Source: Escherichia phage ECML-123-2. From it: a stretch of 64,000 nucleotides of DNA. The stretch lies in sequence record OL631480. One strand, 5' to 3'. Made by a program: the position numbers and the translations under genes. A model generated the notes under the pieces. It did no database searches. It saw only the letters and a program-made list of their open reading frames with translations, and had not been told where the DNA came from. Of this stretch, positions 62,613 through 64,000 are shown in pieces; the stretch's first letter is position 1, and the number at the start of each line of letters is the position of its first letter.

Positions 62613-63086
62613 TTATTTGATTTGTTTAGCAGACCAAATGCGGTCTTTAATAATTTTTTGGATGTCTTCAACATACTCAAGAGAGTGAACATGTGGGTTA
62701 TCTTTGAAACTATAAGCACGAGCTAGCTTTTGGCCTTCAGTTTTGATTACTAAAAGCTCTTTAAGGATAGCTTCATATTTGGAGATAATTCCTTTAACAA
62801 TATTTTTCTCTTGTGTGACTTTAGGATCTGCTTTAGGAGCAGGTTTACCTGAAGCCTTTGCAAAAGCAGCTCCAGTAGCAACTAAACTTTTCCAAGCCAT
62901 ACTAACTGCATTCCCTGTAAATCCTTCGGCTTTCATATCACGAGCAAATTGGAATCGTGATTCATCGGAAGCATCTTTATAGGAATATTTACCCGCGGCA
63001 ATGGCAGCTTTTGCAACAGCTTGAATTTCAGTGCTAGATGCTTCATTTAACACCGCTTCATTTAAAAATTGAGTATATGATTTCAT
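62613..63086 (-). CDS. internal-protein-like protein with capsid targeting sequence
   Basis: 157 aa from ATG at 63086; N-terminus MKSYTQFLNEAVLNEA resembles T4 internal-protein CTS (MKTYQEFIAEA, cleavage after L-x-E). Confidence 0.55.
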   Translation of the reverse strand: MKSYTQFLNEAVLNEASSTEIQAVAKAAIAAGKYSYKDASDESRFQFARDMKAEGFTGNAVSMAWKSLVATGAAFAKASGKPAPKADPKVTQEKNIVKGIISKYEAILKELLVIKTEGQKLARAYSFKDNPHVHSLEYVEDIQKIIKDRIWSAKQIK

Positions 63087-63130: not shown

Positions 63131-63162
63131 TACCAAAAAGCCCCAACCTTTCGGTCGGGGCT
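63131..63162 (-). terminator. second copy of the same terminator hairpin, upstream of the internal-protein-like gene
   Basis: agccccaacctttcggtcggggct, near-identical to 62581..62604. Confidence 0.55.
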
Positions 63163-63164
63163 AA

Positions 63165-63469
63165 GCCTTGCGGCAACCTTGTCGGGGTTCCACCTGCTAA
63201 GGCAAGTGTTTGTACGAAACGCCGGGATTCGAACCCGGTTATTAAGTAGTTGACGCTACTCAATATTTTTAAAAGGCCATATCTCGACCATATCCGAACG
63301 TTCCGTCAAAAACGCTACTCGGCTTACGGCAAAGATATTTCCTCGAATCGATAATTCGGTGCGCCGTTTCTGCTGTGATAGTAAAGAGCCAGAACACAGT
63401 AAAACTGTGGGAGGAAACTATACTCCAGGGAACATCAGTCCGACGACTTACCGGTAGCGACCCGGTTTC
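63165..63469 (-). ncRNA. structured non-coding RNA region next to the tRNA genes (possible T4 stable RNA C/D-like)
   Basis: about 300 bp without a credible ORF; minus-strand tRNA-like T-arm ccgggTTCGAATcccgg; GC content above neighbours. Confidence 0.4.
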
Positions 63470-63820
63470 TTAATATTCTTTTAAAGAATCAATATATTCA
63501 CGGCGTTTACGCCACAAATCAATTGCTTCATACGCGGATTCAGCATTTCGAATTAGCCGGCATTTATGTAAAGACTTATGATTTTGATATTGTGTAGATA
63601 ACGGAATTGTATCTAAAAGGTCTTTACGATCAAAATATTCGTAACCATCTAAACCAAATGAACGATTTTTGAGAAATTGCCAATGACCATATTCGTTTTC
63701 GACATAAACATAATCTGCATGCTGATAAAGCAAATTAATTACACGTTCAGAAATAACAGTATCATTATGATTAAAATAGAATGTTAAATCATGAACTACT
63801 AAATAAACATTACCTTTCAT
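63470..63820 (-). CDS. hypothetical protein within the tRNA region
   Basis: 116-aa ORF. Confidence 0.5.
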   Translation of the reverse strand: MKGNVYLVVHDLTFYFNHNDTVISERVINLLYQHADYVYVENEYGHWQFLKNRSFGLDGYEYFDRKDLLDTIPLSTQYQNHKSLHKCRLIRNAESAYEAIDLWRKRREYIDSLKEY

Positions 63821-63838: not shown

Positions 63839-63914
63839 TGGTCGAGGCAGTAGGGATCGAACCTACGACCTAGGACTTAGAAGGTCCTTGCTCTTCCTTC
63901 TGAGCTATGCCCCG
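63839..63914 (-). tRNA. tRNA-Arg (anticodon TCT)
   Basis: 76 nt cloverleaf folded by hand: 7-bp acceptor stem, D/anticodon/T stems all pair, anticodon loop CUUCUAA, T-loop TTCGATC, encoded CCA. Confidence 0.85.
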
Positions 63915-63918
63915 TAAT

Positions 63919-63994
63919 TGGGGTGACCGATGGGAGTCGAACCCATGACTACGAGAATCACAATCTCGAGTTCTACCAACTGAACTACGGCCAC
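63919..63994 (-). tRNA. tRNA-His (anticodon GTG)
   Basis: 76 nt cloverleaf; anticodon loop UUGUGAU, C73 discriminator, ends ...CACCCCA like bacterial tRNA-His; encoded CCA. Confidence 0.75.
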
Positions 63995-64000
63995 ATTAAT

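Follow-up and report, generated by a model that had tools for sequence, protein, structure and literature searches.

In Escherichia coli, the histidine tRNA gene hisR encodes a G at position −1, which pairs with the discriminator base C73 and is kept by RNase P (PMC5499578). RNase P is sent to the −2/−1 site by U−2, G−1 and the G−1:C73 pair (PMC5499578; PMC9976931), and E. coli HisRS charges tRNA-His without G−1 more than 100-fold less well (PMC5499578). Caulobacter-type alpha-proteobacterial tRNA-His likewise has no genomically encoded G−1, but carries A73, together with U72, and is charged by a co-evolved HisRS (PMC9976931).

Among phages, the closest described case is T5, whose RefSeq record (NC_005859) lists an 'RNAIII, stable RNA with unknown functions' of 106 nt that abuts the 5′ side of tRNA-His. 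The annotated tRNA-His is 78 nt long, begins TGTGGC and includes U−1. In the remaining 21 T5 tRNAs, annotation and ARAGORN give exactly the same coordinates, and His alone among the 22 has one extra 5′ base, which indicates that U−1 was included deliberately. T5 tRNA-His is listed among the T5 tRNAs identified by histidine acceptance, and E. coli RNase III is reported to be involved in the maturation of T4 tRNAs (PMC4810235); a note in the T5 record states that an anticodon-swapped tRNA-His is an effective amber suppressor. Variable tRNA sets of T-even phages have been in print since at least 2008: T2L, RB1 and RB3 have no segB and carry tRNA-Tyr and tRNA-Asn genes in its place, and SegB homing replaces the region (PMC2330249). 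Swapping of tRNA genes at this T-even locus, partly via the SegB homing endonuclease, has thus been known for years. In the literature on position −1 of phage tRNA-His and on T5 RNAIII, we found no paper discussing U−1 of phage tRNA-His.

The DNA analyzed here, referred to as the window, is a stretch of 64,000 nucleotides from Escherichia phage ECML-123-2 (OL631480). Its G+C content is 34.5%, and a greedy, crude scan placed all 61 of its 61 long ORFs (at least 120 aa) on the minus strand. The window ends 6 nt upstream of a tRNA-His gene. The phage is a Tequatrovirus, and over the last 1.5 kb the window shows 100% identity with Escherichia phage Pinarejo (PP925831.1), from which the remainder of the locus was read (locus L001; window coordinate = L001 coordinate + 58499). 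The features of the region are collected in Table 1.

Table 1. Features at the distal end of the tRNA array, in window coordinates
Feature	Position	Strand	Basis
Last 6 nt (AUUAAU, −6 to −1) of the tRNA-His 5′ leader, end of the 3′ helix arm	63995..64000	−	Sequence, MFE folds, RNAalifold, covariation
tRNA-His(GUG), 76 nt	63919..63994	−	ARAGORN; Rfam RF00005, 65.1 bits; annotated tRNA-His in PP925831.1
Spacer UUAC, 4 nt, between the tRNA-His CCA and tRNA-Arg	63915..63918	−	Sequence
tRNA-Arg(UCU), last tRNA of the array	63839..63914	−	ARAGORN; Rfam, 66.1 bits; alignments
116-aa ORF inside the tRNA transcription unit	63470..63820	−	phrog_3355, E = 8e-53; present in T2, not in T4
Homologue of T4 rnaD (species 2 stable RNA)	63358..63470	−	blastn, 78.8% over 118 nt
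Homologue of T4 rnaC (species 1 stable RNA)	63213..63351	−	blastn, 99.3% over 139 nt
Intrinsic terminator closing the tRNA/stable-RNA unit	63139..63162 (L001 4640-4663)	−	10-bp stem, 7 G-C pairs, T run

The initial annotation had read a tRNA with a GTG anticodon and His isotype from the letters, and both ARAGORN and Rfam arrive at the same assignment. ARAGORN calls two tRNAs in the window, both on the minus strand: tRNA-Arg(UCU), and tRNA-His, anticodon gtg, with exactly the ends given in Table 1. For each of the two, the RF00005 hit covers the full length of the model (E = 7e-12 for tRNA-His; gathering score 29). The RNA reads GUGGCCG UA GUUC AGUUGGUA GAAC U CGAGA UUGUGAU UCUCG in its 5′ half and, after the anticodon stem, UAGUC AUGGG UUCGACU CCCAU CGGUCAC C CCA. 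It folds into an elongator cloverleaf of the RF00005 type, with four arms, a T-loop of the form UUCRA and a 7-bp acceptor stem containing one G4.U69 wobble, and it has the canonical bases U8, A14, G18G19, U33, A37 and U54-U55-C56. The discriminator is C73 and the CCA is encoded, giving a 3′ end of ...GGUCAC-C-CCA. The minus-strand sequence thus bears out the anticodon loop UUGUGAU, the C73 and the CCA-bearing 3′ end that had been proposed, and it also confirms the claim of a T instead of a G at −1, for which the strand had been left unstated: plus-strand base 63995 is 'a', which puts a T at −1 of the tRNA. A register in which G+1 would be the true G−1 was rejected by hand; it gives a 6-bp stem and a CCCA tail. 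The tRNA-His gene at this site is real, far beyond chance. Its presence is neither new nor unusual: the GenBank records of Pinarejo and hundreds of relatives already annotate it.

In the direction of the minus strand, the array runs Gln-Leu-Gly-Pro-Ser-Thr-Ile(CAU)-Tyr-Asn, then a 114-nt spacer, His, 4 nt and Arg, followed by the small ORF, rnaD, rnaC and a terminator. The CAU tRNA is called Met(CAU), and its T4 counterpart is annotated Ile. The 11 tRNAs comprise the eight isotypes of T4 plus Tyr, Asn and His. T4 had been said to encode Gln, Leu, Gly, Pro, Ser, Thr, Ile and Arg, which the annotation of NC_000866 and ARAGORN both support, and the repertoire here does differ from it, as the initial annotation had concluded. 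The tRNA-Arg(UCU) gene shares its anticodon with that of T4 but is very different in sequence, and has 2 mismatches to that of T2. Upstream of tRNA-Gln there is a promoter-like site, rnaC is followed by a strong terminator, and a search of the minus strand of the 114-nt spacer for a sigma-70-like promoter returned none. Together, these three observations place tRNA-His in one polycistronic unit; a separate His-Arg unit transcribed from a spacer promoter was rejected for want of such a minus-strand promoter.

Several neighboring features deserve mention in their own right. The rnaC and rnaD homologues have no Rfam family and are unannotated in the Pinarejo record, where a 42-aa 'hypothetical protein' CDS (window 63269-63397) spans both and is probably spurious. 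Relative to T4, a 157-aa ORF (62613-63086, minus strand; phrog_2280) is an insertion; it lies downstream of the terminator that follows rnaC. Pfam searches with this ORF and with the 116-aa ORF gave no match.

Around 300 T4-like phages are 95-99% identical to the last 1.5 kb of the window, and nearly all of them annotate 'tRNA-Arg | tRNA-His' here. For tRNA-His and its immediate flanks, identity is at least 99% in 171 phage records and 95-99% in 133 more (304 in total). The Tevenvirinae genes of Pinarejo (PP925831.1), RB18, vB_EcoM_ACG-C40 and slur04 are the same gene, at least 95% identical including flanks and likewise sited between tRNA-Asn and tRNA-Arg. In the comparison with T2, T6 and the RB phages to which the initial annotation had pointed, T2 and T6 were without tRNA-His, and RB18 and many other Tequatroviruses carried it. 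The T2 cluster (AP018813) reads Gln-Leu-Gly-Pro-Ser-ORF-Ile(CAU)-Tyr-Asn-Arg-ORF, that of T6 (AP018814) Gln-Leu-Gly-Thr-Ile(CAU)-Tyr-segB-Arg, and that of T4 (NC_000866) Gln-Leu-Gly-Pro-Ser-Thr-Ile-segB-Arg-rnaD-rnaC, where neither annotation nor ARAGORN places a tRNA-His. We also scanned viral contigs of IMG/VR with a pattern of 16 specified bases that fits every T4-like tRNA-His; this returned 17 loci, a chance-level number, none of them with a tRNA, so close relatives of the window seem to be absent from that copy of the database.

Pairwise BLAST against T4 showed the same locus and flanks, with 94% identity from Gln to Thr and 91% across rnaD/rnaC. Between these flanks, a segment of ~870 bp, comprising the 3′ part of Ile(CAU), Tyr, Asn, the spacer, His, the different Arg and the 116-aa ORF, stands in for the 3′ part of Ile, segB and Arg of T4. 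Unlike in T4, segB is absent, and Tyr and Asn occupy its place, as in T2L. The whole distal array is a replaced module rather than T4 plus insertions. Relative to T2, the difference is one clean 190-nt indel, consisting of the 114-nt leader and tRNA-His, between near-identical Asn and Arg genes; its junctions share CCAA(A/T)T microhomology. The tRNA-His gene and its leader travel as a cassette of ~190 bp that many T4 relatives carry and T4, T2 and T6 lack. The tRNA-His gene also helps in phage typing, marking a tRNA region of T2/RB type, not of T4 type. On balance, tRNA-His is very probably a genuine, functional phage gene, the tenth of an 11-tRNA minus-strand polycistronic array, carried within this cassette together with its leader.

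The tRNA-His of this phage and E. coli hisR are identical at 61 of 76 positions. The two have in common the anticodon loop UUGUGAU, the D-loop, C73, CCA, the pairs G1-C72, U2-A71 and G3-C70, and the first five bases of the acceptor strand. Of the 15 differences, the majority affect base-paired positions and compensate one another (6/67, 7/66, 11/24, 28/42 and 29/41). Where they part is position −1: the phage gene has a U there that is unable to pair with C73, and BLAST alignments of hisR to phage tRNA-His genes begin at G+1. The phage gene thus has the GUG anticodon and C73 of the hisR type without the encoded G−1 that would extend the acceptor stem to 8 bp and without U−2; the leader has A−2 and U−1, so that all RNase P determinants of −2/−1 cleavage are absent. 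Nor does it fit the alpha-proteobacterial type, for which A73 with U72 is defining (PMC9976931), as it has C73 and C72. In contrast to the alpha-proteobacterial tRNAs, the phage keeps C73 and must use the G−1:C73-dependent HisRS of its host.

We next considered position −1 across phage tRNA-His genes, drawing on about 20 annotated GenBank records. The −1 survey covered 14 phages, representing Tequatrovirus, Moonvirus, Jiaodavirus, Kanagawavirus, Winklervirus, Roskildevirus, two Aeromonas T4-like phages, three Vequintavirinae and one mycobacteriophage. Each of the 14 carries T, never G, at −1 and has C73, and T5 makes this 15 of 15, spanning four phage families (T4-like, rV5-like, T5 and one mycobacteriophage). 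The combination of U−1, C73 and an acceptor 5′ strand GUGRC was found in each of the 15 genes, including the one described here, and C73, GUG and the acceptor strand GUGGCC are conserved among the surveyed genes. In the 87 other tRNAs of the surveyed loci, position −1 is T in 46, A in 21, C in 20 and G in none. T at −1 is therefore what this phage tRNA-His lineage conserves; it is neither a peculiarity of this gene nor a defect. Two fecal contigs labeled 'UNVERIFIED Bacteriophage sp.' (MT835505.1 and MT837491.1) encode G−1 in their tRNA-His; one of the two has no encoded CCA, and the contigs may be bacterial or temperate-phage DNA. The U−1 rule accordingly holds for this lineage and not for every phage-labeled sequence.

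Alignment of the leaders showed that conservation extends well upstream of tRNA-His, into the structured spacer of 114 nt (Pinarejo L001 5496-5609), of which only the six nucleotides listed in Table 1 lie inside the window. Spacers range from 31 to 117 nt in length (L001, L005-L012, L014, L016, L035-L038 and T5, L041 10285-10394). When each was folded alone, the MFE structure paired the 5′ end with the 3′ end in a helix of 12-15 bp that mostly ends exactly at −1, the partner of U−1 being an A located 2 nt past the CCA of the upstream tRNA. In Pinarejo the helix has 13 bp, and its last pair, A:U−1, abuts the acceptor stem. The interior varies from 4 nt to about 80 nt, with minimal hairpins of 31 and 33 nt in MY742 and PEi26.

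Covariation within this helix is strong. RNAalifold returned the same 14 pairs. For seven full spacers, 99% of cells were paired and 6 of the 14 pairs showed double changes, compared to 35-50% pairing in slid registers; shuffled alignments reached the observed values in 0 of 500 cases on four of five measures and in 12 of 500 on pair types. In an alignment of the two arms from 12 lineages, registered by hand relative to −1 and joined by an artificial GAAA linker, 96% of cells were paired (40-49% in slid registers), 11 of 13 pairs were compensatory and 0 of 500 shuffles matched on any of the five measures. The terminal A:U−1 is the only invariant pair in this alignment, and the 12 lineages belong to three of the four phage families surveyed. 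In Pantoea phage F5M2A the register is unchanged and the arms (ACUAAAGGGUUUUCG / CGAGAACCCUUUAGU) are wholly different in sequence. Long spacers elsewhere in the arrays also have structure, yet leave 3-10 unpaired nt at each end; a flush helix is specific to tRNA-His, save for the Gly-to-Gln spacer of CR3, where a single nt separates it from the tRNA. The leader of tRNA-Gln in T4 and Pinarejo has an 11-bp hairpin that halts 5-8 nt short of the tRNA.

Searching Rfam at a permissive threshold with the spacer, tRNA-His and rnaC/rnaD retrieved three tRNAs and two sub-threshold chance hits, and no family for the spacer. A homologue of the leader helix flanking segB was sought in T4 and none was found; the T4 segment is simply different. 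The possibility that the spacer arms are terminal inverted repeats of the cassette was rejected, as they flank only the spacer, while the indel relative to T2 also takes in the tRNA and an extra 5′ hairpin; it is also countered by the arms covarying rather than being conserved. Additional small elements were noted near the helix. Near the 3′ arm of the spacer, several T4-like phages have another small hairpin, whose UC(U/A)UGAU loop is conserved. Between tRNA-Asn and the leader helix, Pinarejo-type phages alone have an extra 6-bp hairpin, UGUGAC-AACU-GUCACA (L001 5590-5609), and Erwinia phage Cronus has a similar UUGUCAC motif ahead of the helix. In Aeromonas phage Aes012, the 291-nt spacer contains a T-arm-like motif (CAGGUUCGAGUCCUG) ~60-30 nt upstream of tRNA-His, which may be a decayed or unannotated tRNA.

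We infer expression, 5′ end and charging of this tRNA-His from the DNA sequence and its comparison with relatives. Host RNases would cut the tRNA out of its polycistronic precursor. In our preferred reading, to which we assign a probability of roughly 40%, the 5′ end would come from an RNase III-type cut between −2 and −1 inside the leader helix, and the mature tRNA would keep a 5′-phosphorylated U−1 as a partial stand-in for the G−1 that HisRS needs. This proposal agrees with the annotation of T5 tRNA-His. The T5 leader forms a 15/15-bp helix flush with −1 that starts 1 nt after the CCA of the upstream tRNA-like rnaI, the A paired with U−1 being located 2 nt past this CCA. RNAIII is annotated as starting at helix position 4, which pairs with A−4, and as ending at U−2, leaving a 2-nt 3′ overhang. 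The annotated ends thus match an RNase III-type staggered cut, for which the complementary product would be 5′-pU−1-tRNA-His. Stacking of the leader helix (13-15 bp) onto the acceptor/T arm (12 bp) would create a quasi-continuous helix of ~26 bp with the −1/+1 junction near its center.

The likeness to T5 extends to the GUG anticodon, C73, the encoded CCA, U−1, the acceptor strand GUGGC and a structured RNA of ~100 nt directly 5′ of the tRNA. However, the tRNA body and spacer have diverged so far that BLAST gives no match to T5, and T5 has U−2 where A−2 is found here. For T5, moreover, the spacer is listed as a stable RNA and histidine acceptance by the tRNA is reported. The architecture of U−1 and leader helix is apparently undescribed outside the T5 annotation.

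The main alternative, which we consider close to an even bet, is that RNase P cuts between U−1 and G+1. The tRNA would then have a 7-bp acceptor stem without a −1 residue and would be charged inefficiently by HisRS, with high expression compensating; the helix would serve only to stabilize the spacer RNA after excision or to insulate the folding of the tRNA, and U−1 would be conserved for favoring RNase P and closing the spacer helix. U is the base that RNase P prefers at −1. It is also the commonest −1 base in the other surveyed phage tRNAs (53%, with G never seen), so that canonical −1/+1 cleavage is at least as plausible. The leader has neither U−2 nor G−1, the determinants of −2/−1 cleavage (PMC5499578), structured spacers are common in these arrays, and both Aes012 and mycobacteriophage Daffodil have T at −1 without any leader helix. 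Several points fit this alternative poorly, however. The depositors of T5 placed U−1 inside the mature tRNA for His only, and the annotated 3′ end of RNAIII is −2, not −1. From general RNase P biochemistry, a helix flush with the cleavage site should hinder the enzyme. Finally, a charging defect of more than 100-fold (PMC5499578) is difficult to reconcile with conservation of the gene in hundreds of phages.

A different question is what the gene is selected for. The tRNA would read CAU and CAC, adding to a host pool that derives from a single gene, as hisR is present in one copy in 5426 of 5426 complete E. coli genomes. In the ORFs of the window, CAU and CAC occur at 15.3 and 4.4 per thousand codons (78% CAU), or 19.7 per 1000 for His in total, and AAU and UAU codons are very heavily used. 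Total demand for His codons is not above the level of E. coli, which makes codon supply a weak rationale for His specifically. An anti-defence function has been considered instead, in which the main selected role of Tyr, Asn and His would be to replace or shield host tRNAs cut by defence tRNases, not to match codons; we regard this as unlikely, though not without support. Tyr(GUA) and Asn(GUU), both located at L001 5610-5775, and His(GUG) are all members of the G34-U35 (queuosine) family. The set also overlaps the published targets of defence tRNases, with Tyr cut by retron-Eco7/Septu, and Asn and probably, to a minor extent, His by PARIS. Phage tRNA-Tyr rescues infection from retron-Eco7 PtuAB and Septu (PMC11555353, PMC13096335), and the PARIS effector AriB cleaves tRNA-Asn(GUU), with probable minor products of tRNA-His(GUG) at 40|41 (10.1101/2025.02.04.636281). 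Positions 41 and 42, next to this site, differ between the phage and host tRNA-His, and the unremarkable His codon demand is in keeping with a role of this kind. On the other hand, tRNA-His is the main substrate of no known defence system, its anticodon loop is identical to that of the host, and the substitutions at positions 41 and 42 are of the ordinary compensatory kind seen in stems. An anti-defence role would be compatible with either account of 5′ maturation and, for His, is only suggestive.

That the gene is a decaying or non-functional pseudogene that lost G−1, the main HisRS identity element, is essentially excluded by its conservation (at least 95% in about 300 genomes, recognizable across four phage families) and by its compensatory substitutions, and is further contradicted by the perfect cloverleaf with all invariant bases, the conserved C73, GUG and GUGGCC strand, and the reported histidine acceptance of the T5 homologue (PMC4810235).

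Returning to RNase III-type processing with retention of U−1, a broader version can be formulated, which we hold to be rather doubtful at present. According to it, at least three enterobacterial phage families would have swapped the universal G−1:C73 pair for a covarying leader helix that stacks on the acceptor stem and is cut between −2 and −1 by host RNase III and not by RNase P, releasing a stable hairpin RNA of ~100 nt together with a pU−1 tRNA-His whose extra 5′ phosphate would serve HisRS in the absence of G−1. If true, this would constitute an undescribed route of tRNA 5′ maturation, along with an undescribed conserved RNA element that has no Rfam family. If U−1 is indeed retained, these phages would provide a natural case of tRNA-His identity without G−1 in a G−1-dependent host, and would suggest a function for the 'stable RNAs' of phage tRNA clusters.
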